DNA of 64,000 bases from Psammoneis japonica. Taxonomy: Eukaryota. This document shows, in pieces, positions 18,500 through 55,686 of this stretch. The position numbers and the translations under genes are program-made. The notes under the pieces were generated by a model. That model was not told the origin of the DNA and did no database searches. It saw only the letters and a program-made list of their open reading frames with translations. The stretch spans positions 1 through 64,000 of the forward strand of contig QPGO01000229.1 of NCBI GenBank assembly GCA_008632985.1, read 5' to 3'. Every line of letters starts with the position of its first letter. The stretch's first letter is position 1.

Positions 18500-19837
18500 T
18501 GCTGTTCTTCAAAAAGGTTTTGTACCGTTAACAAATATTGATACCGGTAAGTCTAGTGAAGATCAACGTCGGAAAAGACGGCTTTGGCCGAGGGCCGCCG
18601 CTAGTAGATATCTATATATTACACCAAATGCCTATCTCCTAAGGTTCCATGTAAATGAATGCCAACAATGTCTTCTTCTGTTCCTTGTCGCAAAATATGG
18701 ATGCGTGAAACATGTACCGATACTGTGTTCTTCTCTCTTCTTCTTTGGGATCCTTGCTAATTTGTGCATGTATGTACTTGCCGTCTTTTACGCTTCTTGC
18801 TCCTCACGAACATAGTCCTTCGTCTGCGACTATTGCCAGTCCCTGGATCATTCTATCTCTTATTCCCTGCTCCAGTTGTCTTTGCTTGGATTGCCGTGGC
18901 CACACGTCTCTGCAACAATCAGATCGCCAACTGATGCAGTTTGGCCCTGCCACACAAGGCACATGTCGGTGTCAATCACCCTAATGACGATACCATCGTA
19001 CTCGAGCTTCTGGAGAGGATTGGATGAGTCGCACTCCTGGAGACGGACCGTCTTTCCCTCTTCTAGAGGCCATGAAAGACCGGCCTGGATGCAGTAATCG
19101 TCGTCGAGTTCACTCTCAAACAGGCCATTACTACGCATCCGGAACCCGGTACATCCTGTTCCCAGGGCGAGCTTGGGTCTGCAGTTGCACACCGATGCCT
19201 GAACGCCGAGGCAGAGACCATCGGCATCATCGTTTCCGAAGTGTGTGTAGGAAGAACCTAATTTCCGTAAACCACCATGCGTGTCGTCGAGCACTTTCCA
19301 TCCACCTTGGACAAGAGGAATGGCGACAAGCGAGAATAACGCATGCACGGAGAGCTTCATCGTTGTTACAGTGAAAAGATGTTGTTTGTCGATTGATTGA
19401 GATGCTTCAATATATGAGTTGGAAAAATGACATTCATTTTTTTGGAAGCCCATCACTGCAAGTCTCCGCTCTGCTCGCAGAAAGAGACATTCTTACATAT
19501 GACACGATTGATTTGTTATGCGAGCCTTTCCAAGGCAATATAATCGGGGGCCCTTGCGATTCGGGGTCGCGCTTTCGGTCGGATGCGTCTATTGAGAACA
19601 TCAATCGTGTCGCTTGAAAGGTCCTTCTCCGCGATGCTGAATCGTGAAAGAAAGTTCTTACGATTGGATTGTTATGGGGCCTTACATAAAGGGCAAGTCC
19701 TTCATGATTCACTTCGCGCTTTCACAATTAACAGAGTCGCGGTTTCATGGAGGCGGTTCAAGATGATTCTCTTCACAGTTTGAGTTCGCAGTGCAGTGTT
19801 CACAGTCGAGACCGAAGATGAGAGAACCTTCTGCATT
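18500..19837. repeat. Segmental duplication, copy 1 (paired with ~33969-35330)
   Basis: Long high-identity match from CTGTTCTTCAA...TTTTGTACCGT through ...GATGATTCTCTTCACAGT. Homology resumes just after the 3' LTR (23911-23933 vs 35300-35322). Confidence 0.9.
18860..19360 (-). CDS. Small secreted ricin-B-lectin-like protein, copy 1
   Basis: Signal peptide MKLSVHALFSLVAIPLVQG. Cys-paired motifs GLCLGV, DYCIQAG, VRLQECDSSNPLQ, DMCLVWQG and VAETC...NW resemble beta-trefoil repeats. Confidence 0.65.
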   Translation of the reverse strand: MKLSVHALFSLVAIPLVQGGWKVLDDTHGGLRKLGSSYTHFGNDDADGLCLGVQASVCNCRPKLALGTGCTGFRMRSNGLFESELDDDYCIQAGLSWPLEEGKTVRLQECDSSNPLQKLEYDGIVIRVIDTDMCLVWQGQTASVGDLIVAETCGHGNPSKDNWSRE

Positions 19838-22800: not shown

Positions 22801-23897
22801 GCAATGCCCGTGAACCATTTGGCAAATCACCACTCATCAAAACCAAGAACCTGGTGGAGTTTGGTGCAAATGGGTGGATGACCAAGGAGATTTGTGTTGC
22901 TGGGATGAACTGAGAATCACTTGAGCCACACCTGCATTGTCCAGAAGGTGTCCAATTGTTGTTGTGCGTTGACATGCGAGTGGTGTGGGGGAGTCTGAAA
23001 TGCCATTTTCAGCCATTGAAGTTGAGGTGACCATTGGAGTTGAGAAGCATGGGGGTGTTCAATGATGGGTGGGGGGCAGACAAAAATGAACAAAAGAGCA
23101 TTTTGAGTGCACTTTCCACACTGGGTGGCACCACATTGACAAACTGGCAATCAAAGAAACAGACCTTGGCAGCACTGAGCAGCTGTGAAAGCAAGACTGT
23201 GGTGGGTGCAGCATGTGCACAGGACACTCAGTTTCAGAGTGACTTGCAAGAAGAGATCGTGGGTGCAGAGAGGCGGAAAATGCCAAGTCATGTGCACAGA
23301 GACAATGCTGCATCGCTGTTTCTGGCTGTCAATGATCAAGTGGGACAGCAGACAAAACACATTTGTGACAGACATTTTCAATTTTGGGGCAAGCTGGTGC
23401 AACAAGGAGAAGTTGAACCACGTCATGTCAGCATGGAGAAGAACCCAGCAAATGTCAACACACCAAGAACAAGTGCATCAAGAAGATGCACAAGAGACCA
23501 GCTCAGAACCTGCTCACTGCTCAATGGACTCATGATGGTGGAACCGGAGCCAGTCAAGAAGGGTGTCCCAGAACATGACTCAAGCAGGACTCAAGTGATT
23601 GGCCCTGGTTGCGATTGAAGGATTGTGCAGCAGACAACTGCAAAATCTTGGCTGACCACAAATGCCACAATCAATCTTGAGGAACAAGATCAATGCATCG
23701 AATGAGTGAGGAGCAGCAATTTGACAAGATTGGCTCAACAAGATTGATTTGGTGGGATTGATTTGACAAGATTGAAGTTCAGAAAAAGTGGAAAAGCAGG
23801 TTGCAATTTAGCAAGAGTGAGAAAAGAGAAGATCATTTGCTCCAGTTTTGTGCGCTGCTGATGAGTGTCAGCAGTGTTGGCATCTGGTTGTCTGACA
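19838..23897 (+). mobile_element. Decayed Ty1/copia LTR retrotransposon; RT apparently deleted
   Basis: Related LTRs at ~19838-20185 and ~23564-23897, both starting TGT, with a purine tract AAGAAGGG before the 3' LTR. Two Gag CCHC knuckles (~21000-21130), protease LLDSGSTAH (~21720), integrase LCLDMSG / LHVDNAPE / QFNAAVERAF, and RNase H WQSKKQTLAALSSCES / DNAASL / TKHI, in copia order. LTR right ends are approximate. Confidence 0.85.
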
Positions 23898-23949
23898 CTC
23901 ATGATTGCTTGCATGTGCCATCCTTTGTCTGTGCAGAAAACACCCTGCA

Positions 23950-26900
23950 CTCCATGAACAAGCTTGTTGGGAATGGGGATCACATGGTGGATTGTGGTGG
24001 TCATGTTTGAACTTTGACTGGGCTCTCCGGAACGTGGGGGTCAGAGCCTTGGTGAGAACAGGAAGCCACGCAGATCAGCGCCACATCCTGCACAGGTCCT
24101 TTCCACTCAGGAGCCAGACAACACTCACTTGGAGATGATGCAAGAACATTCATTGAGGACTTTTCAGCCACAATCAACAATTCTCCAAAAGTTTTGTGTG
24201 ACCCCTGCTGAAACTCAAGTGATGAGATGATGTGACATCAAATGTTGTGAGACAACAAAAGCAGTGGCTTGACCAGGTTTTGGCCTTTCTTCTGGTGCAC
24301 TTCAATGGGGGTCTATGCAGGAGGATTGGAAAAATTAAAAACAAATGATGCAGGGGCCACAGAGGCACAAAAAACACAAAAAACACTCAACCTCCTTCAA
24401 CCTCACACATCTTCTGATGGGAAAACCCGGCGGAAATCAAGCGCACTTCTGGAGGGATCTCAGGCAAGCATGACACATCAAGTGGATCTTTTCCACATCT
24501 GGTCTGCTGCTCAATGCATTCCTTGCTTGCCCCATCCATGTTGCCAGAGTCAATCATGCTGGCAGTGCAAAAGTGAGCGCACTTTGCCCATGACATCTTC
24601 GCGGCCCTGCAAGAAACCCGTTGGTGTGCCTCGCAGTGACACCCTGCCATCATCTCATGCTTGCACCAGTCCAGGAATCTGTCATGTTGATTGATGAAGT
24701 CAATCTGGTTGTTGCCATGAAACCTGCAAGCAGCAATGGCGGTGTTCGTGCTGTTTCCGGCCACATCACTTCCAGCTGCGGTGCACTGCCACATGCCTGC
24801 GCATGTCTTTTTTTGTGGGAGCCTTGTTTGCCTGCAAACCATTGCTCAATCAGATGAGCTGTCATTGGATGTGCAGCCAATTCATTTGGGTTGTGCTGGG
24901 GCCATGAGTGTCATCACAGCGAATGTCCGCATGTCGTGCAAGTCGGAGCTGATCACCTTGCATCATGGTCTGGCTGTTGCAGCCAGCCAGTCCATGAAAC
25001 TGACAAGTTCTTCCAAGCAGCAGATTGAATGACACAGTTCAATGTCTTGTCTTTGTCAATTCAAGACAGAGCATCTGCAGCAAGCTTGTCATGAGCTGTT
25101 TCAAACTTGGTGAGCAAATTTTTGGTGTGTCACTCCTTGTGTGCCACCAGAGCAATGTCAACTGCCGCTGATCTCACAATGAATTTTTGATTGGGAGGTT
25201 TGTGCTCCTCCCAAGTTGAGCTGTGCTGCAGTGACCAAATGACAAACTTGGCAGACTTTGGAGTGACATCTTGTTTTGGTGCTGCTTCCAAGAAGCACAG
25301 GTTGACCATCAGAGTGCACGACATCGTAATGTCTGCACACATGATAAAAATGTGTTGCCACATTATAAAATCTGCTCATCTGCACATGACGGTTTTTGTC
25401 ATTTAGTTGGTCATTGATCTCCTGCTGTTCTTCACATTTGAATGCAGATGTTTTTTTAATTTTCATGCTCTGCCTTTTTCACAACAACCAACGATCTTTA
25501 ACGACAAGCCAAACATTGCAATTGCATGCAATGAAATTTTCATCATGCAAAGTGTGCACCAATTGTTCAATCAACAACTGTGCTCCAATTTGCCCAGTCG
25601 TCCGCATCGTCCTCTTCATTCCACATGTCTTGTCCACTCTCTTGCAAGAATTTCAAATGTGCCGCTGCCGCATTGGATGTTTCCTCGTCACCGTTCCAAA
25701 AAAGCCACACTGCATTTCTTGCATTTGGGTGAACATCATCGAGAGGAAGAGGTCCCTCGAAACGCTGAATTGCATCACTGCTCCCCTCTTGATGTCATGT
25801 CATCAGCTTCTTTTTGTCTTTCTTCATTTTGCCCGTCCTGTTTTTCTCTTCCTTCCTCGTCTTGGTGCCACCTGTTTTCACCGTCTCCGGCGTCTTTCCA
25901 TCCGAATCCTTCTTTTTCATCAATCCCGTTGCCGTCGCCTTCATCTCTTGTTTTTGTTTTTTTTTTTTGTTGTGTCACTTTGTTTTGGATCCATGTTTCT
26001 GACTTCTCTCCATGCCATCTCCATTTCTGAATGTTTCTTTGTGATTGTTCGCATGCGTCACTTGAGGGCACCCACGTGTTTTTCACGTGCCTTAACGCGC
26101 ATGTAGAAATCCATGTTGTTTTCCAGTGCATGCACCCTTTCTCCTGATGCTGTTCTGCACAACATTTTCTTCCATCAATTCTGCACTCCACATTGCCCTT
26201 TCCCAGTGTGATCTCACGTGGGATTTCCCTGGGAGAAGTTGCACGTGCGTCTGGCAGGTTTTTGTGTTTAAAACTCCAAATCGCACCAGGCGCGCATGCA
26301 ACTTCTCCCACACACCACTCTGGAACATTTCCACAGAAACCAGATTTTTTGGTGTTGGAACAGCAACCATGGCGCCGCGTGACCTGTTGGTTGCCTCTCT
26401 GTTGCAAGACAACAATGATTCCCACCTCGAGGAGGCCGCACTTGAATCTCTCTTTGCCAACGGTTTTGGAGTGATCGACAGCAACGAGCGGAGCCATGTC
26501 AAAGCGATGATCAAGACGGTGAAATCCAAGGTTCAGTTTCACCGCGATTCCACTTATGATCCCTCTCCGAACTGGATTGCGCTTGCCTGTGTGTGGCAAA
26601 AGTTGAAGGGCAGACCTCATTTTTTTGCAGAACCAATGGCTGTGAACCGTGTTGTTGCAAAGGAACTTGGGTGCAAGAGCTTGCTGCACTTTCTTTCTGC
26701 AAAAGGATGGAGTCACTCCAGTCAAGGCACCAAACATCCTCATGCGTTGGAGTGTCGCCGTGCTCCCAAAGCAGAGGACATGAAAGTCGTCGGCAACAAG
26801 GCAAAATCAACAGACATTGCAACCAACATGATGGCAAAGATTTCCATGTTGCACAAGCTTCTCCATGATCCCGGATTGTGCAACCCAAAGGGAGAGCCAC

Positions 26901-29900
26901 TTGTCAAGCACATCAAGCTGAGAAGTTTTGAAGGGAAGGTTTTGTGTTGCGCGCAATGCCTTCACATTGGTTTTTTGATTCTTTGTGACAAGATTCTGCC
27001 ATGCGCACCTGAAAGGAATGGTGATTGCGATCATTGGCTGCACTCCCTGTTCAGCGAATGTGACAAGACATCGACTTGCATCAACTTTTTGGAGAATTTC
27101 CTGGCTCTTGGTCACTGTGAGATGACCAAAGACGAATGCCCTGTGTCCTTCCCTGAATTCGTAAAGTTGTTGTTCCGCCAACACAAACATTCTTGGGAAA
27201 AGCCCATGCGACTGGCGATGCTCGATGTCGAGCAAGAACAAATGCGTGCAGCACATGTTGATGAGACTCTTTTAAGATGTGTGAAAATTGATCATGTGCT
27301 TTCTGCCGCTGACGATTCCGGCAAAAGCAAGGCCACAAGGGATCGTTTTGAGGCTGTGTGGAAAGCCAGGCTTCGTGACTTTGCCACTCAGTGCAAGAAG
27401 AAAGAAATCGGCAATGCAACACCATCCGTTGCGAAAAATGCTCGGAAACGAAAAAATCCAAATGGTGTGAATCCATCACATTGTTTGATTGATTGTTTGT
27501 GCTCATCTTCTTAACTCCAATTCTTCTGTTCTTCTTGCCACCTCTTTAGCCGCCTCCCTTTGCTCCTCAAGCCCCAGTCTCAAAAACCCCAAAGATGGTG
27601 AACCTTCTGATGTTTCTCAGAACGAATCGCTGATTCTCCAAGATGTGCCGACTCTCAAGGAACAATTTGAATGTTCCCGAACAAAGTGGCTGACCCTCGG
27701 CACGACTTGTCAGTCGCCTCCTCCTCCCCCAGACAATTTCACAAAAGAAGAGCTTGTGAAAGTGTTTCCTGAACCATCTCCTTTTGTGATTCCGGGTGAG
27801 GTGAAGTCACAACATTCTCACCTTGTCGTCTTTGAGGAAACCCCCATTTCCGGTTCCTTCAAGGGGAGCTGTGTCAAGCACCAGTTGTTCCACAGCATCT
27901 CTGATTTCTGCTTGGTGAATCACCTCCGCAAGTTTGTGCATGGATTTGAAAACGGCACAGCTCCCAATGATCCGATGCAAGAATCGATGGTTGCGATTGC
28001 TTGCCCGACCCAGTCAACCTCTCATTTTTCCGACGTGGTCACTCATTTGTGACACACGGACAAGATGCATCAGAAATGCTTTTTTGGATTGCGACTCAGT
28101 GTGTCGTCGACACTCCGTGCAGTGTTGGAACATGGCAAGCCGAACGAAAAAAGGGATGGACCAGAGTGCAAGTTGTGCTGTCGGATCTGTTTTGGTTGTT
28201 GTGGCCAGAATTACGAAGTCGCAGACGGTGAGTTAGCTGAAGTGGGACCCACTCACAATCCTGGTGCCATCTTTGGCAGGGATGAGTGGGAGAAGCTTCC
28301 AAAGGATGTGCAGGCAATGACAGCCTCAATCTTGGACGCCGCGCAACTCTGCGAGGACGAAATTAATCTTGTTGCATTGAAAGAAATGCGTTCCTTCCAT
28401 GACCCGCACCGTGATGGTCTTTTCGCGGCTGAGCTCTGCAAGATGGTTGGAGCCAAGCATGTTAGAAGGGAGGCGTGGAAATTCAAGTTAAGTGCATCTC
28501 GTCGTCCGGCAAAAAATCCGTTAATTCGAAAACCGAGCTGCACATTGACAAAGAGGATTGTGACATGGATGGGCGCACCAAGACTGGTGCTCTTTGCTCA
28601 TCACTGCGAGACGCTGTTGGTCGCTCTTGGTCGTTGAAGGTTGTCACTGCATCCAAAGGCAATGCTGGAAACTGTGTCAGTTCGGTGCATGGGTGTGCCG
28701 AGTTCCGATCGCGTGTGCATGGTCATTTTGCAAAACTTGATCTGTCACATGCTGCAGAAATGATGAGACACCGTCGCCCTCATCGTCCTCCGTCAGGCAA
28801 GCTGACCCACAGAAACATCAAAGATTTTTTCCTTGACCCTCACTCTGTGTGGGTGGAAGAGGAAATTGGCAAGCCAAATCTTCCGTCCGACACAGCCAAG
28901 CATCCTGTCATTGTCATGCCAAGGAAACGTCTTCCGTTCGCCATTGTGAAGGACTTTAATTTCTCGTGCGGTTGTTCGGCAATCATCGACAACCTCGATG
29001 AGGTTGGTGCACACGATTGCTTTCGTTGCGCCGTTGTGGCTGGGCATCAAACCGGATTCTCCCATTTTTGCTGCTTGTTGTGCAACACAGATGCTGTGAA
29101 GTGTCCTTTTGTGGCTGGCGATCGTGTCCTTCATTGCTTCAGAGAAGCTGCGAGGCCACTCGGCAGCATTGCGGGGGATCGCAACAACCGACGCATGCAG
29201 AGCCCGGGACTCTATTTCGAGGAGGTTCATGTGGCAGAGTGCGGGACGAAACTCAACGGTTTGATGGATTTGCTTGTTGGCGGACTGGTTGTCATCATCG
29301 ACTGGATCAATGACAATGTTGGCAAGCCAACGTTTGACCACAAGGCGATCGAGGACATGTTTCAAACCGTGGTCCAAACATGGGATCATGCAGGTGCTGA
29401 TTGTGGAGAGTTCAGATGCATGAACTCTGCACAGATGTTGATGCTGTGTGACACAGGGATCCATCCTCACCCTGACCTTCGTAATCTTGTCTGTCCGGCA
29501 GCCAAGTTGGGAGCGGCGAAGCAAATGGAGGAAATGAAGGTCCCGGTGGAGGAGCACGATTTACTCTTGGAACGGATGGAGGGTGATTTTGATTTGGAAG
29601 ACTGTGGAAAGAATGGTCCAGAGTCTTTGCCATGTGACCTGAGTGCAGCTTGTGAAAAGATGGGAATCTGCAATGTCTTTTGTTGTGGACAGCATCTGTT
29701 GCTCTTGTTCTCTGATGGGCAATCAATGATCAAGCGGTTTGGAAGGTGTGGGTGGGAGCCAGTCCCATTCGTGTCGATTGATGAAGTTCGAGCCAAACTG
29801 GAACGGCAAAGAGAGGTTGCTTTTTCATGGCAATCACATTTGTTTTTTGTCTGATTGTGCCAACATCATCACATTGATTTCTCGTTCTAACAGGAAGAAG

Positions 29901-32900
29901 GCTGCTGGTGATTTGTTGTCATTCGCAATGAACAAAAGTGACGATTGCGAGGAGGAGTCAATTGACGAGAAAACAAGCAAACTTCCAACTGCTTACATGG
30001 GTGAAGAGGACAAAAGCGAAGAGCCTGTTGACGATGAGCACAACCAAGTTGCACATTGCTCCGAGGGTGAAGAGGACCACAGCGACTTGGGAGATTGTTT
30101 CGCAAGTGACGAAACTGACGGGGAAACACACAATGTGCTGTGGTTGGGGATGACCCGTCCGCTCAATGCAAGGCAACTGTCTTCTCAAGAATTGTGCTCT
30201 GAGAAGGGGGTGGCCTTAGTGTCGTCTGACCAACACAGGCGAGATGAGGCCCGCGCAATGGCATTTGAGGAATCTAACAAAACAATCACAAACATCGTTC
30301 CAACAGTTTCTCTCCAAGATGGCCATCCTGATCTGCGCTTAAATTGCAATGTGAAAGCAAGAGATTTCGTCAAGAGAGTCAAGCAGCAGTTTGAGAAACT
30401 TGTTGATTTCGACAACCATGGGTTCGACCAAATCATGTTGGACTGCTGCTGGATGCCAGATGGAGAGTGGCGCGACAGTCATTTTGGGATGACTCAATTT
30501 TTCCAAAATCTAATTGATCTTCGGGCCTTGCTCTCCAAAAACGATGAAGGGGGGGACACAGTGATTCCCTTTGCTCTTGCAACCTTCTTCCAGGTTGTCA
30601 AACAATGGAAGAAATTGTTGGCTGTGTTCGACACATGCACAATGGACAATGATGCTGCAAAGAGCCGTGCGAGTGTGTTCTTTGCAAGCAACCTTGTGAC
30701 CCAAGAACAACGAGAACGGTGGTTGGGAAAGCCTTCCGATCAGGAAGAAGCTCATCTTGGAGTTTCCAAAGAAGACATCAGAATGAAAGCAACGGAAGGT
30801 GCTCGCACCGCACTGCTTCACGTGCACCGCAATGACTTTGCCAATTCTGAAAGGATCAAATTCATCATGTTTGCAAGAAAGAGTCAGGTGATCACTGTGA
30901 GTGAATGACAGATTGACACGCGCACCCCATTTTAGAAACAAATCTGACCAACACTTCCTTCTGTCCTGTGCAGCCCAAACAAATGGGGCCTTTTCTTGTG
31001 CTTCTGCTGCTCCTGGACATTCTTCACAAACCAAAACATTGTCCCCAATTGCTTCGACAGGGACAACCCGCAACTTGGGTGAGCACTGAGTCTTCTCAGG
31101 CATTGAAAGACAGTTGTTTCGTTTGTGATCAAGCTGCCAGCGACTGACCAAGTCTGCGTGCTGATGCCGTTGCCTCATGGTTCTCTGGTCAATGTTGACA
31201 GGGCCTTCATCAAGACTCATGCTCGTTGTCCTTGTCTTGTGGATGAGAAGGGAAAAGAAGAACAACACGCAAAAAATGGTGGGAAAATGGCAAACATTGC
31301 ATTGTCTTCCAGATTTGGATGATTCTTGCAGGTGTGACGTGTCTGCATTTTGATTTTTTATCTGGCATTTACAGTGAATGTTGTTCTTTTTTATTTGCTG
31401 TCAAAACAAAGGATGTCATCTCCGTTGAAACGCAATGACAGCCATGTCAAAAAGCAAGTTGGACCATTCATTGTCACACACAAACATGTTTTCAAATTTC
31501 AATGTTGCTGACAATGACCCATGCAATGTCACAGAGAAAAACAGAGTGGCTGGCTGTCTCAACACGACCCAGACGACGGTTGCACTGTTGAACAGTGACA
31601 CTGCTCTCATTGTTGCCGTGCAAAGATCAAGATGTTGTCTCCAGCACCACAGGCAAAGAAGAGAAAGAAAAATGAGACCATCAAGCCAATGAGCCCGAGA
31701 CTTCAGGCAGTGTTGAAGAGAACAGGTGCGCAGGCAGTGCATGGTGCATTGAAATCAGAAGTGAAGGTGGCTGGAAATGATCTCTTTCCACAGGTGAAGT
31801 TTCTCAGTCCGTCAGAATTGGCAAGCAATGGGAGCGTCTCAATGTTTGTCAAGAAACAGATTGCTGGTGGCAACATGGACACTTCAAACTGGTCAGGAAC
31901 TTGGGAGGAATGGGCAAAAAAGGCGGTAAAAAGGCAAATTGACGACAGCAGAAACACGGTGTGTTCGGCCATTGGGGCGGAGGCAATGGCCCGCAAGCCA
32001 AGTGACCAATGTGCGTGACTCGAGAGTTGCGTGCATCTCACAAGAAGATGATGGTGATGCTTTGTCCATGTGGGCGTTGTCACTGAGGAAGAGGGAAAGG
32101 AAAAAGAAAAGAAACTCAAGGCGGCAGTCAGGAGGAAAAAGAGGAAAAAGTCAAGCCGTGACAAGAATGAAGAGAATGATGTCCCGTTTGTGCCGACATG
32201 GGATCCGTTCAGCCCAGACACCATCACCGGCGGCAAACGAAGGAACAAGCAGGCATGCAAGTGGTTCTGTGATCACATCCCACCTCAAACCAAGCAAAAG
32301 CAGGTGTGGAGTCGTGCCGTCAAAACTGGGAACGCACAGGTCTCACAGTTGTTTGCGGCAGGTGACAAAGCTTTGGCGCTGTTGGCCATGGAGAATTGTT
32401 GGCAGGTGTGGGCATGCAGGAACAAGGAGGAGGCGGTGGAAGAATTGGGTGAGGAAATGGAGCCCAAAGAAACAAGGCCTGCCCCTCGGCACACGAAGCC
32501 AAAGAAACAACGAGTGTCTTGGGGAGATGACGGAATCACTCGGTTCAACGATTTGTGCAAAGAGGTGACGAAAGACAGAGACTCCAAGGAGGGCAAGGAG
32601 TTTGAAAAGTGGCATGTGGAGATCAAGAAAAGCGAGTGCAAGAAGTCCGGAGAAGCAAAAAAGAAGAAGAAGACAGCACCGACCGGTGATGCAGAGAAGG
32701 TGAAGGCAATGAACAGCCCAATGGTGGAGAGCAGCAGGGACAACAATGGCAACAACGATGAGCAGGAGGAAGGTGCAAAAGGCAAAACGAACAGATGGAG
32801 GAGACGAGTCCGATGAAGACGAGTCCAATGAAGACAAGTCTGATGATGATTGTCAGCTCAGTTCAAGAGAGTTGTAGCAAGAAAATGTGCACACAGTTGG

Positions 32901-33960
32901 CACAGCACTCGGTCATTGCACTGCAGACGTAACAAGGAATTGACTTGACCGATGAAATGTTTTTCTCGTTTAAAACAATGTTTGCGAAAATTAACAAACC
33001 AAGGTTTGTGTGGCAATGCAATCACGCATTGGCATGTGGCAACAAGGTGGAGGCAGAAATGGTGATGTGGGCACAGTGAAAAACAGCACACACAATTCTC
33101 AATGAGTCATTGCAGTGTTGGCACACCAAACTTGCAACCAGAGGTTGGCCTGTCATCATGTGACAACGATGTTTTGCAGTGTTTTAACAAATTGTCATCA
33201 CGCAAATCTGCACATTTTTAACATTTTGTGCGCTCTGATGACCTGGTCTCATGTCAAGCGAGGCGGCCTCTCAACAGCAGTCTCTTGCACAAAACCTTTG
33301 CAATCAATTGACTTTTCCAAACCCTTCAGTCTTGGGCCACAACTTTGGACCAACCGCCCATCTCAACTCAAACTGCTGGACACCATTGGTTGTCACACAG
33401 CTGGCAGAGCTGACACTCTTTTGGCCCAAAAGCACAATGATGAGAGTGCGGCCTTGTTGTCGCTGGGAGCAGCTGCTGCGCCACTGGAGTTGTCAACACA
33501 CACCTGCTTTTGTTGATCTTTGAACCCAAAAGATGGCTCCACTGTGTGAAGCTGGCAAGCACCCCCCGGGGGCCGATGTTTGGAATTCCAAATGTCATTG
33601 TTGTTTGAGCAAGGTGGCTTTTCTCTCACACACCACCCCCAGAACTCTCACAGATGTGCTGCTTTGCCATCAGCATTGCTGTGCTCTGTGGCAGTGGTGC
33701 ACTGGCTGTCCATTTTGAGGTCATTGCTCAGGCTTTCACAGGGTCAGCAGGCCTGAGAATTGTTCGCTTGTGTTGTTCTTCAAAGCAGCCTGGTGTCAAT
33801 GAGAGCTTGGGAAGCTCTTGCTGCTTGTGATTCAGAGGTTGGGGGCTCAAATCTCTCAAATCCTGTGCCAAATCAATTGCTTCAGGGCTGGGTGGCATCC
33901 TCTCCCATGATTGCCATGATCATCTGTCTGGCAGGTATCTTTGCTGACTGGTTGGCTCTC
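23950..33960. mobile_element. Large decayed TE-like block with several eroded ORFs, possibly a large DNA transposon with cargo
   Basis: Same TpA-free composition as the adjacent copia. Long Tyr-poor, Cys/His-rich ORF remnants at 26126-27514, 27489-28637, 28475-29854, 29739-30908 and 31632-32816. The last (GDKALALLAMEN...WGDDGITRFNDLCKEV..DR) resembles TE accessory ORFs. Family and termini not identified. Confidence 0.5.
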
Positions 33961-33968
33961 ATGCTCTT

Positions 33969-45957: not shown

Positions 45958-46269
45958 TGTCTGTTGTAGTCTTGTCCCTTTATTGGCGAACGGAGGAAGC
46001 AGAAACGGGATCGGCGGGAGAAAGGAATGGCGAATACCACCACGACAAGAAAAAAGTAGAAAACGCCAACGCCGCAATCTCCAAATCTGGAAATCCACGA
46101 TCCAGATTTGTCGGCGATCGACACGATGTCGATCGACGGGCGGGCGGCGGGGGCGGGCGGACGACAAAACGAGCCGAGCACGCCGGAGAGTCTGTCCTGG
46201 CTTCACAGAAAGCCACACGCATTGTGATTGCCATGCCGACCGCACCTGTGCTAGAGTAGAGAGCGTGAC

Positions 46270-47650
46270 AAGGACACACCAGCTTGGAGGTTGGAGGATG
46301 GACCATTGTTTCAGACCGGCGATTTGGGTTGTGACATTTTCTCATTCGTCCGTTTGCAGAGAGCTTCCAGGGGAATTGTTTGTGACCTCCTGTGAGGGGT
46401 CCCAACCGCAGGAGTGGAGAGGAAGCCACCAATGCAGCAAAAAATGCCTCAACACCCACCAAATCCCAAGCTGGATGCAGAGGGTGGGAGAGAGATGGGG
46501 GGGGGCATGCTGAAGCTCCTGACTGTGAGAGGGGAGACACGGCCCAAATGAGAACACAACAAGAGACACAACTCCAACGGCCAACAACTGCACAGCTGTT
46601 TGCTGACTTTGCACAGACCTGCAGGGCCATTGGCAGGAGTGGGGGGGGGGGGGCTTTGTTGGTGCACTCTGCTGCAAAAAGTGCCTCTCCCAGAATCCAA
46701 GCAGGAGGACAAGGGCCTCCAGAGCTTTGTCCATGTGCAGAGCAAAGTGATGATGATGGCACAAGGGGCAAAGGGGACAAAAGAGTTGCGATGGAGGGCA
46801 AGGTTGTGGGCCAGGATCAAAGGGGGCTTCAGCTCTGGAATGAAGAGCAAAAAAGCACCCTCCAGTTGGCCAACATGCACTGGCTGAAATGTTGCAAAAT
46901 GATGAGCTCTGCCTGCAAAATGCAGCAGGTGCAGAAAGCACTTTGTCAAAGCACAGTGTGCCCAGCCCAAATGACAGACCACATTGGCATCAACTTGGGC
47001 ACACAGCAACCCTGCTGGTGGATTGGTCGCTCAAAGACAGCATGAGGAGGAGAGGGGTTGGAGGCACCACAAAGCCAAGGTCTTGGGGGCCAAGCAAGTG
47101 CCAGGCAGCAGCACATGGAAAATGGAGGTGACATCCACAGAGGGGTGACTTGGTGCATGCATCCATTTGACAAAAATGAGCAGATGAAGGTGTGTCTGGA
47201 AGCAGGAAGCATGCCACAACAGGGTGCACAGCAGGTGTGAGCCTTTGCACATTTGTGCAGAGGCCTTGTCAAGCAGGTGTGTCAGCAGTCAGCTGGAGGT
47301 CATCCCACAGATCGTCAGCCCAAATCTTGATTGCTGCTCATCAGCCAGCACAGTGTTGGCTGCAGGTCTGTGTGGATGATGAGTGTCCATGCCCCATGCT
47401 GCCAAACAACCTGCTTGTGCAGCTGTGAGTTGGCCATGTCACCCTGCCCCCTCATGCCATTCATTGACAATGAGGCCCAAGAATTAATCAGGAATCATGC
47501 CATCATGTCCCGGAACCAAGAGGCCAGCATGCAGTCACTTGTGGCCTGGAGCAACAACTTTTCTTGAGAGCCACGGCCATGTGAGACTGTGCTCAACATT
47601 GTCGTCCTTGATTCTAAAAATTGCTTTTCATTTCATTGCAAGGAGTCCAC
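46270..47650. mobile_element. Unidentified repeat relic with TpA- and CpG-depleted composition
   Basis: Abrupt compositional island between BAP31 and NOS. Tyr-free ORFs in many frames, poly-G runs, no recognisable domain. Confidence 0.45.
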
Positions 47651-47959
47651 TTCATTCTTGAAGTAAAGACCACACAGCCTGGAAAATGGGTGCAGTGAGG
47701 GAGAGCGAAAGGCGAGTTGTCGGAAGCGGTGAAGAGGCGGAAAAAGAGGAAAGAGGTGATGTGCTGTGCCGAGCGCCGCCAAAAAGGAGAGACCTCGTGA
47801 AATATGTCCAGACAGCTCCCAGCAGACTGACCGATAGAGTCAACAGAGCAGGACTACACCATCAACGGCAAACTCTCTACACTACTTGACTTAACGTTAC
47901 ACACGAACAACTGTCTTACACCCGAACCCCACGTACGCACTATTCAAACGACTTGAGCC

Positions 47960-50900
47960 ACGTAGCAGATCTCTCTGTTTGTTTCTTTCGGACCTCACGC
48001 CTGGCCTCGACGAAATGCGAAATGATGCCCCACAATCAAATTGCCATCGATTTTCCACCCGCATGCGTTTTATGTGAGCGACCGCTCCAACACGCGACAT
48101 ATCCCCATGCATGCGCAAGACATTCACGCACGCTTCATAACACTCGTCGCCGACCTTGGCATCGCCGCAAATGTAATAAAACGTGTCGTCTCGCATAAGA
48201 AGTTTGCACAATTCTTCGCCGGCGTCCTTTAAGGCTTGTTGGACATAACGCTTGGGAACGCCAGGTTCGCGGGACATGGCCAAGTGGCGCTTCAGCACAC
48301 CATCTGTCACCCAATCGTCAACCTCTTGAGCATAAATGCGTTCCTTGTTGGAGCGACATCCAAAAAACAAATGGCCTCGCCAATGTCTGTATTCTTCAAA
48401 CCATTCTCTGCGACATCCAAGGCACGATCCTGAATGAATCCCATCATAGGAGCAAGTCCGGTGCCTGCCCCCACCAAAATCATCGGAGACGAAATGTTTT
48501 GGGCCCACGAAAGGTGGAACCGCGGATGGCAATTCTCGCGCGATCTTTGCCGGGCATGAGCCTTGCCAAGTAGTTGGAACAAACTCCGTGGATCATGACA
48601 CTCTTGGTTGTTTCGACATGAACGACGCCGACGGAAATCGAGACCTTTCTCGGATCCTTTTTATCCGAAGACGAAATCGAGTAGTGCCGTGCACGCAACT
48701 TGGGCAGTAGTGGTAAGAGTTCGGCAAGCGTCAACAGTGGACCCTTTTGGATCTTAGACGCCCCACCGTGGCAAAGGACGGATCCGAAGGCTTCCAAAAA
48801 GTCAACGACAGTCGGATACGTCTGAACAAATGTTTCAGTTTGTTCTGACTTATCACCTCTCCGCTCGACGATATCCTTTATGTAAAAGGTGAGCTGACGA
48901 CACTTATCGGCGTCCTTTCCGCAGAAACCGTGACGCGCAGCAACGCCTTCGCCAATCGGACCTTCACCAGCGTCAGGGCACAAGACTCGCTTGATCATTT
49001 GCAAAAAGTCTGGAACGCCCCCTTCTGTGAAAGCCAGGTCAACGTATGCCTGCAGGGCGGTGGCCAACGTCTCCGGGGTTGAGAATGCCAGACGAGCGGG
49101 CAGTCTATCACCGTCCTCGATACAGTCCACGGCAAACGGCTGTTGGAGCTGATATGCGACAAGTTTCGAACGCTTCTCCTGCGAGGACGGACAAGCTGCT
49201 ACGAGTTCATCTCCGAAACAATCTGCAAAGCGACGGACCATTTCCATTGAGTTGAGCGGGTGCACGGCAAGATGGTCTCCACTGACGTAGCTCTCTCCAT
49301 CTGGTACGTTGAATGTGATCTTTCTCGTCGAGCGAGTATCAATGTCTCCGTTTTCCATGAGCTCTTCATTTTCAAGACAGAGGCTGCCGACGTCCTCTGG
49401 CCATGTGAAACGCTCAATCTGAGTCTTTGCTCTCCACCTCCTCTTCCACATTAGCTCATAACTGATAGAGGTCTGGCCACTTCCGGCTCTGCTCTCGAGG
49501 ACTTTCTTCAAAGTGTCAGGCATCACCAGACGGGTGACAAGATCAATCCATTGAGCAATGGGCGCTTCGGAGCCTGATGCATCGTCAACCTTCTTAAGTG
49601 GGAGCATCTGTTTCCCTCCTGCCTTTCGAAGCATCGCATCCAGCGCGATGCCCGCTTTGCAAAAGTCAGGGTACAGGGTCGAGCCGAGAGCAAGAACTGC
49701 AACGTCCGTCTCTTTCAATAAGTCGTCGGGAAGGGCAGTCTTGGCAAACACATCAGCATTACCTGGGGCCTCGCCCGCACCAAACGTACTGGTGAGCGCC
49801 AGTATTTTTGATATGCGACGCTCCTTTATGACTTCGAGGCCAGCAACTTCGTTCAGGGCTGCAACCTGTGGTTTGCACAATTTGAGCTTTCGCGCTAGGC
49901 GAAACGCGGCTGCCTCGGCCGTACCAGTCTCTGACCCAAAGATGATTAGAATACGAGGGATCTTGATGCCTTGGTCACCTTCATTTGGGTTGCTTGTTTC
50001 GACTTGTGCTGTCACCGCTCCAGCAGCAGTCACGGCATTTCGGTATTCCTCAGGGAATTCCATCACGTCAAAAGGCGAAGCGCAGTATTCATATCTACAG
50101 TGCAGAGCACACAGCAAGGTCAGATGGTGCACACTCACGTGTCGCATTCCAATGTAACAAAACCAACTTACTGTGGTGCGACGTAAAAGTCACGCATCTC
50201 GTGGTGCCAAGTCACGTTGGTGGGGCCCGTCAGACCACCGATCCAGCTCCACTGCCCGGGGCATTCACGCCCGGCATCACGCTCACGCTTGCAGTGGACC
50301 ATGAACGAGTTTCCTACAGTCTCCATGTCAACCATTGTAAATCCCTGCTTTTCGAACGAATAGTTCAACGCGACATCCATCTCGACATAGGCACGCTGTT
50401 CATAGATTCGCTTTGTCTCGGTACTGATTCCCATGGTTTCTGACCACTCCTTAGCAAGCTTGTAGCGCTCAAAGAGGTTTCTGACAACTTCAACGGATAC
50501 AAACCAGCCATTGAAGGGCATGCACTGATAGTCGACACCTCCAATGTTCATGTTGAAGTTCGAAATCGCAGGTACTGCTGCCCAGCGGAGACCAAGCTCC
50601 TTGATGGCAGGGCAATCGGGGTGCTCAATGTGCTGAGGAAAAAGACGACGCGGGCATGAAAAGTGAGACGGGTACAGCGTGCGACGAGCCGCGTACAACA
50701 ACTCTACTTACGACTTCGTGAACAAACTCTTTGGGAAGTTGATAGACGTAGGGCTTTCTGGTGCCTGGGATCTTAAAAGAAGAGGGAGGACATCATGACG
50801 CGTCTTCTTCTCCGGCGGCTCCCAGTACCCATTCTCGATTATATAGTCCGTGAATCCCACATTGGCCGGATCACCCAAAACCTCTCCCGTCTCCTCGTTC

Positions 50901-53050
50901 TTGTACCCTGCGTATCGTACAAATTGTGACGACCAAAACCGCGTGCCCCACATTTCATTGATAGTTTTTGGCTTGTACACACTCATGACACTCTGAATGT
51001 TGGTACCACAGGTGGCAATTCGCAAGTGCTCCTCCACGTCTGCAAAGATTTCATCGGGCGCCTCAATGTGACGGCAGTCGCGAACCATGAGCGTATTCCA
51101 AGCGATGCGGCCAATGCATTTGGACGAGTTCCTCCACGCCAACCTGGCCCCAATCTGAAGTTCCTCGGATGTGTGGGTGTACGTTCCTGTTGACTCGATT
51201 TCCAGTTTCACTTCCATCAAACGACGGTTCAACTGGTCGTTTGACCAGTTGAGCTCCGTCGCGGCTTGACCAAAAAAGTCTTCTGCTTCGGCAATGAACT
51301 TTTCTTCCCAAACCATGCTGTGATAGATCATCACCATGAGTTCCACGTATACGACTAGCAAATGATTCTTCCAACTCGTCGGCAGTGAAATGACTGTCTT
51401 CATTTTTGGTCAACTCTTCCTCCTCTTCGAGGAACGGCCGTATTGTTTTCAAGAGCTGGCCACCGACAATTGGGTAGGCCCACGTGGGGATTCCACTTCG
51501 ACGATGCATTTCATTCAAATGATCGACCACGCGGCGAAAGGAGGTTCCATACATGCCAATCTGATTGACTTGCTTCACCATCATGTCGAGCGTTTGCTGC
51601 AAGCAAAGCGGAAAAAACAAGTGAGAAAACCTTTACCTTGTGATTCTATTCTGCAACGTCTCTCCCGCAAATATTACGTACTGCAAAGTGAAGAGCCAAG
51701 GAATCCATATCCGTATGCTTGAAAAAGTCGAGGATCTCTTCATGGTTGGTCAAGAGCTGACGATAAAACGTTTCTCCAATAAAAGTGACTTTGCTCGTCT
51801 CACCGCTTGATGTAACTCGATCCCAGAAGCGAGGCATGCCGATCTGAAAGACTTGCGTTCGAAATCGGGCGTGAAGCACCTGAATGCCTTCAATGGCTCC
51901 CTTGGCGACAATCATGGAGACAAACGCAGCCATGGCACTCTCCATGGGAGGCTTTTCCAAATCTTCCAGGTCGGCTTCTTCAGCATATGGAGAGTGTGTT
52001 TGGCAAGCCCAAAGAAATGCCTTGCAAAAGGAAAGCCAATGAGTCGGTAAGACACCGCAGCGGGCATAGATGCGAAAGTACTCTTCCGGGGTTCCCTCCT
52101 GGGGATTAAATCGCTTCATTCCCCAGAATCCGGAAGGCGACGTCTTGAGTACCTCCGCCACGGGTCGATATGCTTCTCTCTGAACCGTCTGTGTATGAGG
52201 ACAGAGAGTACGAACGCAGGCGTCCAACATGGCAATGATTAACGGCCTTCCATGAATAAGTCTAGTTCCGAGACACTGACCGAGAGGATCAATTCCTTGT
52301 TCGACTTGATCGCAAGCCTTTAAATGTAGACTCTCGACCGTCAGAGGCGGATCGGCTGTGGCGTTGTCCTGGAGAAAGTGTTCCAGAGCCACCAGAATTC
52401 GCCAACGTCCAAAAATGGCTTCCGAGAATTCCGTTTGGAACGCCAACACCTTGTTCCAGCCTTCCATAACGAGGACGGCATCTGTCTTGTTGGAAAAGCC
52501 CCTACTGACACCGTACTCGGTTTCGAGCTTTTCCATGGCGCTCGAAATGAGCTCCTGGAGCTTTTCGTCCGTCATGGCCGCCATGGTTTTTCGTTGTTGT
52601 ATAAGTTCTCTGGGATCAATAGTTCGCCTCGATCCCTGGTCCTTGCTCCTGCTGTCGAAGTTCTTCTTGACGTATCTCTGTGTCACTTTTGCAACTTCAT
52701 TCCGCGTCATTCGGCCGAGCACAGGAATCCGGCATCTTCAAGTGCCGAGTGGGTCCTACCTTGTGCGCGAGCCAATCAGAGTTGGTCCTCCTTCAATACT
52801 TAGGAACTACGGTCGACGTGGGCAACCTCACTTAGGGGTCTCGTGTTTGTCCATTACAACCATACATGTCGCTTGCTGGCGGCAGTGTCCATTCTACGCA
52901 TTTTCCGGTCAAGGGATGCTGGCCGACGCGGAGTGAGATCTTCGAGCCTCCAGTTGGCACCGGCAAGTTTCCTTCACTTCTTGCGAGGACCAGGGACCTG
53001 GGACCAGGAACGATCACATCGATGGCGCTGACAGCTGTTGACATGCTGTG
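47960..53050 (-). CDS. NOS: Nitric oxide synthase with N-terminal globin domain(s): globin-NOSoxy-FMN-FAD-NADPH, multi-exon, several frameshifts
   Basis: Globin IGETFYRQLLTNHEEILDFF...HLNEMHRRSGIPTWAYPIVGGQLL. NOSoxy EIESTGTYTHTSEELQIGARLAWRNSSKCIGRIAW, QFVRYAGY, GDPANV, WAAVPAIS, PFNGWF, CPGQWSWIGG. Flavodoxin IFGSETGTAE, TSTFGAGEAP. FNR GDHLAV, RHYSISSS, GVCSNYL, VGAGTGLAP, LFFGCR, YVQ, YICGD. Both ends are approximate. Confidence 0.9.
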
Positions 53051-53139
53051 CATCCATTAGATGACTGTTGTTTGCACAGCCATTTTGCTGGCAGATGCAC
53101 TCGTTTCCACTGACCAGATCCACCTTTTGATTCTTTCGG

Positions 53140-53660
53140 TTTTGCGAGTTGTGACGACGTTGCGAATTCCGCGACGTTGCGGACGTCCGTCATGATGTGG
53201 GTGTTGTGGAAACCTTCCTTCAAGGATCAGTTTTCTCAACAATGCGTTTTGCTGCGGAGTCCGCAACATTTCGTTGCAGAATCCACAACGACATTGTGGA
53301 TTCCGTGATGTTGCGGGCGTCCGCAAAACGTTGCGCACATTGTGGAAACCTGCCTTCGAGGATGAGGTTTCTCAAACATTGCGTTTCTTCACACGGAGTC
53401 CGCAACAATTCGTTGCAGAATCCACAATGACATTGCAGATTCCGCAATGCCATGAACATTGTGGAAACCTTCCTTTCGAGGATGAGGTTTCTCAAACATT
53501 GCGTTTGGTTACGGAGTCGGCAACAAAACAGTTCCGAAACGAATTGTTTCAGATTCCGTGATGTTGCGGACGTCCGCAATGATGCTGTGGTTTCAACATT
53601 CATCGTTGCGGATTCCGCAGCGCAACGTCATGGGTAAGGTGGAATCCGTAACATCCTTGG
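53140..53660. repeat. Short tandem array of palindromic units (~120-136 bp)
   Basis: TGTGGAAACCT..CTTC.AGGAT.AG.TTTCTCAA units start at 53205, 53341 and 53460. Many TTGCGGA/TCCGCAA inverted motifs. Confidence 0.75.
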
Positions 53661-53972
53661 CGAGACAATCACTCGCACAGCATTTCTCCCTCACACAGAG
53701 TTGCATGATTTAGTGTCGTCTTCAAAGTGGACCTTTTTCATTTGGCTTGTTGGGAGGAAAGAGTGTTATGGATACGGTGCAACACTCTCTCTAGATAGTT
53801 ATATATTACTCCAGGTGGGAGTTACATCACGTCATACCTTTGCTGACTGCGTACCCAAGACGAATCTGTTGGCCTCTTTAGCGAAGAACTTTGATGCTAC
53901 CGAGAAAACAACCTTTCTCGGTTTACAAACGTGTGTCAATTCCCTCGCATTTCTTTCGCCTCATTCCCTACA

Positions 53973-55418
53973 CTAGTACGAACCATCCATTCCCGCCATG
54001 CTGGCAATAATCAGCTTGTATCCGTCATCCAATGGTTTGTCCCGATTGACAACACTCTCGCAAATGGCAGGAACGTCCGTCGCAACATCCAAAAACTTGC
54101 ACAAGTAAATCAACAGGTTGAAATCAGCCAACAGGTCGATAAAGGTCCATCCGGAACTCCCGCTCTTGCTCAGTTGCCGCTTCATCTCATCATGGGTCTG
54201 CATGCGATCATCCAAATCACGGTTGGCCTTGGGGAATTGCGAAACAAACATTTCCGACGTGTGTTGCACAATGGGAACGACCGTCAAGAAAAAGTTGTTT
54301 TCGACCGTTTTGGATTCCTTGCCCTCTTGAATGGCGGTAAAGGTTTCACTGACACTGCAAAATCCCGGTTGTGGTCCCACCTCGAGGGCTTCTTCGGCAA
54401 CCATTTCCATACACTGCTTGCTAACCTGAAAGGCTTCAAAGGAAGCATTGCCATCGTCCCCGACCGTCACTTTTACAGTCACAAAGGGCGTTTCCTCGAC
54501 ACCACCGGCCGCCTCGAGTTGCAATTCGGCCGTCATGATGATTTCGGCCGCCGACATGACGAATCCTTCCTCCCTCGGAGCGTGTCCAAAGATCCATCCG
54601 ACACGACGCAGTCCGAGCATTTGCGCCAATGATTCCACCGTGTCTTCCATGGCATCATCCAACACCACAAATCCCTCGGCCGCAGACGGATCCGCCTCTT
54701 GGGGTGGTTCGTAAATGGCTTCCACCACCACCTTGTTGTTGTTTTCCGCGTCATCACTGTTGTCATTCTCTTTTTCAAAACGCCCATAGAGATATCCAAA
54801 TCGATGACGTGAAAAATTGAATCGACGCAAATAGGATTGAAAGTCATTGGCACTGTTGGTTTCCAACGACACACCACCCTTGCTGAAACTCTCTTCCTGT
54901 CGTTTGATTTTAAACGTGTATTGATCATCGAGTGCGACAAATTCATTGAGAGTCCACTGCATCTTCATGTCTCGCAACGGTTTCATGCCTTTGCGAAAAC
55001 CACGGTCTTGTGCCGAGACCGGAGCAGACACATCGTCATGTACCAATTTGATGGAACCGTCCTTGTCAATGATGCGTTTCATGTTGGTTGTGCTACTACC
55101 CGACACTGCTGCTGCTGCTTCTGGAGCAGTAGCTGTAGCTGCTTGTGGCTCGGCAGCACTTTTGGGTGTGTTTTCTGCACACGTGGACGCATCGACACGA
55201 CAATGTACCATGCTACCATGACTCAGACCCAGCTCTTGGAGAGTCTTGTTCGTATCGAGGACATGGGTACAGGCCGGATCGGAACTGAGAGGCTTTTCAT
55301 AAACGACATGAGGACGCGTCTGTGCAATCATTTGCAGAATTGATTCCGTGGTACTTGTCGCTGGATCCAGACCATCGACACGCCATACTCCCACGTTCGA
55401 TCGAACGCGAATCAACAT
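53973..55418 (-). CDS. NPL4: Nuclear protein localisation 4 (Cdc48/p97 cofactor)
   Basis: MLIRVRS UBL-like start, RFGYLYG, VEAIYEPPQE, LGLRRVGWIF, FVTV, AFQVSKQC, FPKANR and LADFNLLIYL. Confidence 0.9.
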   Translation of the reverse strand: MLIRVRSNVGVWRVDGLDPATSTTESILQMIAQTRPHVVYEKPLSSDPACTHVLDTNKTLQELGLSHGSMVHCRVDASTCAENTPKSAAEPQAATATAPEAAAAVSGSSTTNMKRIIDKDGSIKLVHDDVSAPVSAQDRGFRKGMKPLRDMKMQWTLNEFVALDDQYTFKIKRQEESFSKGGVSLETNSANDFQSYLRRFNFSRHRFGYLYGRFEKENDNSDDAENNNKVVVEAIYEPPQEADPSAAEGFVVLDDAMEDTVESLAQMLGLRRVGWIFGHAPREEGFVMSAAEIIMTAELQLEAAGGVEETPFVTVKVTVGDDGNASFEAFQVSKQCMEMVAEEALEVGPQPGFCSVSETFTAIQEGKESKTVENNFFLTVVPIVQHTSEMFVSQFPKANRDLDDRMQTHDEMKRQLSKSGSSGWTFIDLLADFNLLIYLCKFLDVATDVPAICESVVNRDKPLDDGYKLIIASMAGMDGSY

Positions 55419-55686
55419 TGTGGACTATATGTTCTGCTTTTGAACCGTATGGGTGATACGATCGTAATATACTTCTATCAGCAACAACAACAAGAGCAAT
55501 AATATGCTCTGCTGCGATCTGCGATCTGCGAATGAAATCGAAGCGGAACGAGTGAGGTGCGCGGTGCTACGTAGAAGCTACGCGGATTTGGTACTGAGAT
55601 CTTTTCGATCTTCTGACAACGGCCAGACGGTACGGTATGAAAAAAATTGAGAAAATTTCGGGCGACACACAAAACAAGACTTGACC

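Follow-up and report, generated by a model that had tools for sequence, protein, structure and literature searches.

A TA-poor palindromic repeat array upstream of NOS in a diatom-like genome and the probable loss of its TA by TpA-specific transitions

Hypermutation directed at the dinucleotide TpA in integrated DNA has been reported once so far, in a preprint on the chlorarachniophyte Bigelowiella natans (Mettrop et al., bioRxiv 10.64898/2026.01.13.699255). According to this preprint, 231 of the 302 nuclear point mutations in mutation-accumulation lines fell within two integrated viral regions, and 230 of these 231 were A>G/T>C changes, all on TpA. The preprint also describes 124 clusters of TpA-poor, CpA+TpG-rich windows and an enrichment of reverse-transcriptase and DDE domains among TpA-depleted coding sequences, proposes an ADAT2-like deaminase as the enzyme, and cites in its Discussion a preference of ADAR for a 5' U. 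Our literature search returned no report of TpA-directed hypermutation in diatoms, nor elsewhere beyond the Bigelowiella preprint.

Here we analyze a window of 64,000 nucleotides (contig QPGO01000229.1 of Psammoneis japonica, positions 1 to 64,000 of the forward strand) and, within it, a repeat array that sits in the 1.26 kb spacer between the genes NPL4 and NOS. The sequence suggests that the half-sites of this array probably descend from TTACGGA/TCCGTAA, whose TA would have been lost by a TA-specific transition on either strand, distinct from CpG deamination. The support for this ancestor comes from the other tracts of the window, the context rule of TA loss, the sequencing reads, and the published precedent, and not from the array's own consensus.

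The palindromic array and the context of TA loss

The building block of the array is a palindrome of ~20 bp, TTRCGGA-N1-2-TCCGYAA, from which 33 half-sites were read in the TTRCGGA orientation. The three higher-order units, taken as 53199-53335, 53336-53454, and 53455-53600, were aligned by MAFFT (153 columns, mean column identity 78%). A single column of this alignment, the outer pyrimidine-purine step in the left arm of the palindrome (half-site TTRCGGA), holds TG in the first unit, CA in the second, and TA in the third, each followed directly by CGGAGTC (Table 1). Similarly, a second column reads TG/CA/TG, with TCCG-TG-A at 53306-07, TCCG-CA-A at 53445-46, and TCCG-TG-A at 53559-60. The array as a whole contains 3 TA, an observed/expected ratio (o/e) of 0.09, and 43 CG (o/e 1.38).

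The number of palindromes is far beyond chance, because shuffled sequences yield ~3.6-3.7 matches across the whole 64 kb, whereas 9 of the 12 window matches to TTGCGGA-N-TCCGCAA (at most 3 mismatches) and 3 of the 9 matches to the form with a two-base spacer (same tolerance) lie inside the array. Exact copies of TTGCGGA/TCCGCAA are likewise concentrated, with 8 of the 16 in the window found inside 53177-53612. A repeat search returned 41-nt and 31-nt segments in three copies each, spaced 118-139 bp apart, and a 56-nt segment present twice at 89% identity. The ~130 bp period was missed by Tandem Repeats Finder, and the units were recognized through the repeat search and the alignment.

TA depletion was mapped across the window by one-kilobase bins and a list of TA positions. 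The loss is uneven and confined to sharply bounded tracts that are nearly without TA, whereas TA occurs once per 28 bp in the background (TA o/e 0.47-0.56). The tract that holds the array also takes in a non-array left flank of 244 bp (52896-53139). Altogether, it has 4 TA where 29.1 are expected at the background rate (Poisson P(<=4) = 8e-9), with o/e values of 0.08 for TA, 1.27 for TG, and 1.62 for CA. The flank has 1 TA where 8.7 are expected (P(<=1) = 0.0016); because it is as TA-poor as the array, the shortage in the array is not merely that of a multiplied TA-free motif. Outside the two large tracts, the sole TA-free gap longer than 240 bp is 53058-53510 (452 bp), and all 13 of the 600-bp windows with four or fewer TA start within 52851-53151.

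In the large tract, CG o/e varies from 0.09 to 0.87 per kb and TG+CA from 1.4 to 1.95. For Bigelowiella, the cut-offs given in the preprint are Rho TpA <= 0.43, Rho CpA+TpG >= 1.52, and at least three consecutive 1 kb windows (bioRxiv 10.64898/2026.01.13.699255). By this measure the large tract (20001-34000) shows TpA depletion together with CpA/TpG enrichment of the Bigelowiella type: TG+CA is at least 1.52 in 10 of the 14 one-kilobase bins and 1.41-1.50 in the remaining four, the bins just under the cut-off including 27001-28000, 28001-29000, and 30001-31000. The tract around the array lies below the TA cut-off and falls short in both enrichment and length. Outside the tracts, CA/TG stands at 1.14-1.20 and CpG at ~1.0, and the low background TA might represent a weak genome-wide action of the same bias.

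The few TA that survive reveal which contexts are spared. Survival was taken as the frequency of XTAY tetranucleotides in the two large tracts relative to the background. It is 0.79 for TTAA, 0.31 for CTAA/TTAG, 0.17 for GTAA/TTAC, 0.10 for ATAA/TTAT, and 0.03-0.08 for ATAG, CTAC, and CTAG, and falls to 0 for ATAT, GTAC, and ATAC (82, 106, and 93 expected, respectively). A flank of the TTA/TAA type is present in 48 of the 56 survivors in the large tract, compared with 610 of 1685 background sites (P = 3e-14); TTAA accounts for 18 of the 56 and for 71 of the 1685. In the tract around the array, all four survivors have such a flank (one TTAG and three GTAA/TTAC; P = 0.017), including the TA of the three-state site, which stands in TTAC, among the more resistant contexts. 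An A after T is thus mutated before C, G, or T but spared before another A. A simple fit gave approximate cumulative hazards by 3' base of 0.09 for A, 1.8 for C, 1.1 for G, and 2.3 for T, a fit that is saturated by the zeros and assumes that the original composition matched the tetranucleotide make-up of the background. For TTAC, the rule predicts ~95% TTGC and ~5% TCAC.

The half-sites of the array provide a built-in test of this strand asymmetry, which the data pass. Their outer step reads TG in 23, CA in 3, TA in 2, CG in 1, and other in 4 of the 33. The ratio of 23 TG-type to 3 CA-type sites fits the rule (P(>=3 of 26 | 0.05) = 0.14), whereas a strand-symmetric process would give it with P = 4e-5. 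The objection that strand-symmetric TA decay should produce TG and CA equally fell once the 3'-neighbor rule had been measured. The core CpG, intact in 21 half-sites, has become TG in 7, CA in 4, and CC in 1, a symmetric decay between TG and CA of the sort expected from methylated CpG.

A preliminary description of this DNA, made from the letters alone, had pointed out the three states and the residual half-site near the right end of the array, and both its letters and its coordinates are exact. It had further taken the adjacent CpG to be intact, which is true of the three sites it cited and not of the array in general, 11 of the 33 half-sites having lost the core CpG. Its view that TA loss is separate from CpG loss was sound at these sites, with the same reservation for the array. 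The location at the 5' end of NOS was confirmed as well. However, its suggestion that a palindromic array of ~0.5 kb is enough to be targeted goes beyond the data, given a tract of 815 bp with a non-array flank and an array family in multiple copies.

Table 1 Features of the window and positions at which copies of the array differ
Feature	Coordinates	Strand	Details
Large TA-free tract	19730..33936	.	56 TA in 14.2 kb; TA o/e 0.01-0.11 per kb
5' long terminal repeat	19838..20180	+	TA o/e 0.09, CG o/e 1.01
gag CCHC knuckles	20941-21294		Copia-like element
DSG protease motif	from 21717		Copia-like element
Integrase-like region	22309-22623		Copia-like element
RNase H frame	23031-23618		2132 homologues at E <= 0.001
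3' long terminal repeat	23564..23892	+	TA o/e 0.04, CG o/e 0.20; 73.6% identical to the 5' repeat
Second TA-poor tract	46058..47800	.	5 TA; CG o/e ~0.45; GC 0.52-0.55; 3' side of NOS
NOS gene (approximate span)	47897..52710	-	NO_synthase oxygenase, flavodoxin, and FAD-binding parts; globin-like N-terminal region
Third TA-poor tract	52896..53710	.	815 bp; array and 244 bp non-array left flank
Repeat array	53140..53660	.	three higher-order units of ~137, 119, and 146 bp
Three-state site, TG state	53253..53254	+	unit 1, CTGCGGAG
TCCGTGA half-site, rare CA-type product	53302..53308	+	homologues 53441-47 (TCCGCAA) and 53555-61 (TCCGTGA)
Copy difference	53307		window TCCGTGA; TCCGTAA in two read contigs
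Three-state site, CA state	53392..53393	+	unit 2, ACACGGAG
Three-state site, TA state	53510..53511	+	unit 3, TTACGGAG
Copy difference	53521		window TCGGCAA; TCCGTAA in other copies
Copy difference	53537		window TCCGAAA; TCCGTAA in other copies; transversion
Copy difference	53560		window TCCGTGA; TCCGTAA in one contig, TCCGCAA in two others
Copy difference	53577		window TCCGCAA; TCCGTAA in other copies
Residual half-site TCCGTAAC	53645..53652	+	
NPL4 gene	53973..55424	-	3' end 313 bp from the array

Changes after integration in a Copia-like element

The left ~4 kb of the large tract appears to be a short, decayed Copia-like retrotransposon with long terminal repeats (LTRs) and recognizable coding remnants (Table 1), although Pfam gave no match above threshold for any of the 14 open reading frames (ORFs) of the tract and no reverse transcriptase was recognized in the element. 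The RNase H frame contains no Tyr, compared with 2.9% in 79 aligned homologues. In 3 of the 7 Tyr-rich columns of the alignment it has His (CAY) instead, and in 4 of the 11 Arg columns it has Gln (CAR). The changes from Tyr to His and from Arg to Gln imply that TA and CG were lost and had not been lacking from the start.

The two LTRs differ in 61 of 320 columns, and 53 of the 61 differences are transitions, which run in both directions and include 10 reciprocal TG/CA sites. As LTRs are identical at insertion and these now differ by transitions, the change took place after integration, on DNA, and on both strands. Editing of the RNA before reverse transcription was rejected on the same grounds, namely the divergence after insertion and the involvement of both strands. 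The LTR pair also tells TA loss and CpG loss apart more clearly than the array.

CpG retention differs fivefold between the LTRs (18 in the 5' LTR and 3 in the 3' LTR), while TA was lost in both. The CpG-retaining 5' LTR sits at the edge of the tract, beside unique DNA. Farther right, the 24-34 kb part of the tract has long ORFs in many frames, for which neither Pfam nor sequence homologues were found, and a homologue search with the ORF at 28466-29854 returned none; these ORFs are long largely because the stop codons TAA and TAG have been lost. This part may derive from other transposons or from a viral insertion.

The ancestral half-site and its alternatives

Other copies of the array were examined in contigs assembled from the reads of one sample (three sequencing runs) and matched to the window at 80% likeness, a comparison based on 40 of the 113 differences and 12 of the 28 loose ends. 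The window haplotype has a depth of ~31-36 in the reads. A second, diverged version extends into the unique left flank and is probably the other haplotype; the two haplotypes differ by ~5-12% across the spacer at 52800-53900. One contig joins 53881 back to 53168 and skips 68 bp at 53743-53812, and this joint, which goes back 714 bp, suggests a tandem duplication of the array and its right flank. Copies of the array also vary in length, with joints that leave out 91 and 73 bp and another that returns by 140 bp. In addition, the read depth reaches 512 at 53466-53502, through short and more distant matches, compared with ~62. The array is therefore multi-copy.

Other copies read TCCGTAA at no fewer than five half-sites, at which the window shows CA, TG, or AA (Table 1). 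Because the other copies are uniform at these five half-sites and the window is heterogeneous, the comparison, though unrooted, points to TA as the older state. Conversely, other copies show CA at two positions where the window has kept TA, 53058 and 53635, and losses have therefore occurred on both sides. The consensi of the 12 loose ends contain paralogous half-sites in the states TA (6), TG (7), CA (1), and CG (1). In some loose ends TA is abundant in susceptible contexts, and unedited members of the family therefore probably exist. The TA differences between copies, in both directions, hint at recent activity.

Taken together, these data would fit the following course. After integration, a TpA-specific process acting on DNA would have mutated the array element and ~250 bp beside it by transitions, turning A to G when T stands before it and C, G, or T behind it, and the same process would have erased TA from the neighboring retrotransposon tract. 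The original half-sites were most likely TTACGGA/TCCGTAA. Within TTAC, the top-strand A would lie in the favored TAC and the bottom-strand A in the spared TAA, and TTAC would become TTGC roughly nine to twenty times more often than TCAC. Because TTAC would be edited preferentially to TTGC, the array would come to consist mostly of TTGCGGA/TCCGCAA with few TCACGGA and two surviving TTACGGA, as it does. The TG/CA/TA column would represent a local footprint of the TpA process, and the CpG decay in the array a separate, slower process. The presumed agent is an adenine-deaminase-like enzyme.

Several observations weigh against a TA ancestor, which we infer for each half-site. The majority state inside the array is TG, so the array alone would fit an ancestral TTGCGGA. 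The preliminary description, which had proposed the TA ancestor, had held that a consensus of CG or TG would speak against it, and TG is what the array shows. We nevertheless regard its proposal as the best supported, since the rule itself predicts an excess of TTGC and a TG majority is uninformative on the ancestor near saturation of editing. Moreover, the half-sites are not independent, the units having arisen by duplication, and the binomial figures given above are generous. In the comparison with TA-bearing copies, the four transitions are divided between two favored and two disfavored products (53307 and 53560), and the fifth difference (53537) is a transversion. The TA-bearing contigs may be the other haplotype and its tandem duplicate, and the differences are unrooted. 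Furthermore, 5-6 of the 10 reciprocal TG/CA sites in the LTRs have a 5' T or a 3' A and could equally have come from CpG, and the hazard fit presumes that the transposon once resembled the background in its tetranucleotides.

Among the alternatives, the one that survives best takes TTGCGGA-N-TCCGCAA as the original motif, such as a site bound by a dimeric transcription factor or by a transposase and multiplied in the NOS promoter. Ordinary drift would then explain the TA, CA, and CG variants, and the array would be TA-poor solely because a TA-free motif was multiplied. The prevalence of TG, the 8 exact TTGCGGA, and the placing of palindromes ~20 bp apart agree with such an origin, and, with a mean TA gap of 28 bp, it would not be very improbable for a single ~130 bp unit to lack TA. 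However, three half-sites read TCACGGA, which is two steps away from TTGCGGA, and the non-array flank is equally short of TA. The four surviving TA are all in resistant contexts, and other copies carry TA at five or more half-sites at which the states of the window are mixed (CA, TG, and AA). Under the measured rule, a TA newly made from TG would mostly revert to TG, so that the three CA-type sites would need many events. We therefore consider an original TTGCGGA unlikely.

A CG ancestor, TCGCGGA, is a good deal less probable still. In this case, deamination of methylated CpG on either strand would have produced TG and CA, and a second change TA. One TCGCGGA is indeed left at 53168 and another occurs in a paralogue end, core CpGs have been lost in a third of the half-sites (11 of 33), and 13 of the 40 listed differences between copies are transitions between CG and TG/CA. 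Against this, CpG decay is symmetric at the core, whereas the outer site is strongly skewed (23:3; P = 4e-5), the TA state requires a second transition outside CpG, and the CpG one base away is intact in most half-sites (21 of 33), with an array CpG o/e of 1.38. Finally, selection against TA (for reasons of DNA flexibility, nuclease sites, or RNA instability), with the three-state column as a coincidence, could draw on the low TA of the background (o/e 0.47-0.56 outside the tracts), but it can be given very little credence, since the tracts are sharply bounded and match the position of a dead retrotransposon with Tyr gone from its frames, the LTRs diverged by 53 transitions after insertion, and the sparing of TTAA alone is left without explanation.

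Setting of the array and comparison with known systems

The array is a non-coding repeat element and a member of a small multi-copy family. Its 12 palindromes lie 430-950 bp upstream of the NOS start codon, and the array may serve, or may have served in the past, as a cluster of binding sites. A BLAST comparison with the window found no second copy of the array, the best match outside it being 20 nt long, and Rfam returned no match at E <= 1 for 52500-54100. A metagenome scan with a 21-mer from a unit found no locus; the idealized TA-form palindrome occurred once in each of 17 metagenome contigs, none of which has an array, and these occurrences are probably chance matches or unrelated operator-like sites. 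A literature search for the 7-mers of the array brought up incidental matches only, with no factor or published motif. No convincing terminal inverted repeats or target-site duplications were found around the tract 52896-53710. One candidate pair at 52844/53671, with a 4 bp duplication and TG..CA ends, was rejected as being near chance level, and its left end holds three TA.

The first in-frame ATG of NOS is at 52710, which leaves 186 bp to the edge of the tract and 430 bp to the array, and the last reading frame runs to 47897. The N-terminal ~350 residues (51646-52737, minus strand) have no Pfam name. Homologues of 650-1840 residues carry the same region before PF02898, several of them with PF00042 (globin), which points to a globin-NOS fusion typical of some algae. 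The closest NOS cluster includes a protein of Fragilaria crotonensis. Likewise, the best named relatives of NPL4 are all from diatoms, at no more than 72% identity; a protein atlas confirmed the NPL4 family and was not informative on lineage. Judged by these proteins, the genome is diatom-like and has no close sequenced relative in the collections searched.

NOS has edited tracts on both sides, that at 46058-47800 lying directly 3' of the gene and that at 52896-53710 upstream. The former showed no likeness to the array and no identifiable coding. The NPL4 coding region (53973-55424), with a TA o/e of 0.31 and 5-6 TA per 600 bp at 54026-54176, is the most TA-poor part of the window outside the three tracts, owing perhaps to codon usage or to the same process acting mildly.

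The known systems of sequence decay and editing each share part of this pattern. Repeat-induced point mutation (RIP) of ascomycete fungi also makes dinucleotide-specific transitions on both strands of repeated or foreign DNA, with sharp boundaries and ruined transposon frames. However, RIP turns CpA into TpA and so raises TA, whereas here TA is removed and CpA/TpG rise, a change in the reverse direction and on the other base pair. A TA o/e of 0.04-0.09 with TG/CA of 1.3-1.9 in the tracts and the array is the opposite of its signature, and RIP was rejected. Methyl-CpG decay of methylated transposons has reportedly been described in diatom methylome studies. Such deamination would account for CpG having become TpG/CpA in the 3' LTR, over much of the large tract, and at 11 of the 33 half-sites of the array. 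It leaves TA alone, however, while the 5' LTR and the array keep a CpG o/e of 1.0-1.4 with a TA o/e of 0.09. Methyl-CpG decay as the only process was dismissed on the CG o/e of 1.38 beside a TA o/e of 0.09 in the array and on the 23 TG to 3 CA at the outer site.

Editing of retroelement RNA or cDNA by ADAR or APOBEC resembles the present case in its clustered transitions. These enzymes act before integration and on one strand, whereas the changes seen here came after integration and on both strands, and the array is no retroelement. TadA prefers U-A-C-G in the anticodon loop, and eukaryotic ADAT2/3 also edits an A that is followed by A in tRNA. TadA and ADAT2, the candidate class put forward in the preprint, would suit in that they deaminate A after U or T, and the array half-site offers T-A-C-G. 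The editing of A before A by ADAT2/3 does not match the sparing of TAA. Here, the 3'-neighbor rule, with survival from 0.79 for TTAA down to 0 for ATAT, GTAC, and ATAC, narrows the search for the enzyme.

More broadly, we tentatively propose that a TpA-specific adenine editing of DNA may be ongoing in a diatom, under a strict 3'-neighbor rule with T-A-B edited and T-A-A spared, independent of CpG decay, marking both retrotransposons and a sub-kilobase non-coding repeat in the promoter region of NOS, and leaving haplotype-specific edits. If this is true, it would suggest a genome defense extending across the stramenopile-alveolate-Rhizaria (SAR) group, from Rhizaria to stramenopiles, that also rewrites regulatory DNA. 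The array would serve as a small, non-retroelement test case beside a host gene, indicating that the process can reach the upstream region of a gene.

Compared with Bigelowiella, as portrayed in the preprint, the window differs in several respects. The host is a diatom-like stramenopile and not a chlorarachniophyte, the changes extend to a short non-coding repeat next to a host gene, and some stretches of the tracts have lost CpG as well. Depletion comes close to saturation (TA o/e 0.01-0.11), compared with 0.45 for the nucleocytoplasmic large DNA virus (NCLDV) region of Bigelowiella. The TAA-sparing rule has been seen here, whereas the main text of the preprint does not deal with trinucleotide context, TTAA, or CpG. 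The Bigelowiella mutations were demonstrated in mutation-accumulation lines, while the present process is read from sequence comparison. New points in the window are the host lineage, the closeness to saturation, the sparing of TAA, and a clean separation of TA loss from CpG decay. In both cases, the target would be TpA, with TpG and CpA as products on either strand, the affected tracts are bounded, depleted in TpA, and enriched in CpA+TpG, and the changes appear tied to transposon or viral sequence in integrated DNA. By these likenesses, the process in the window looks like one of the same kind as that described in Bigelowiella (bioRxiv 10.64898/2026.01.13.699255).

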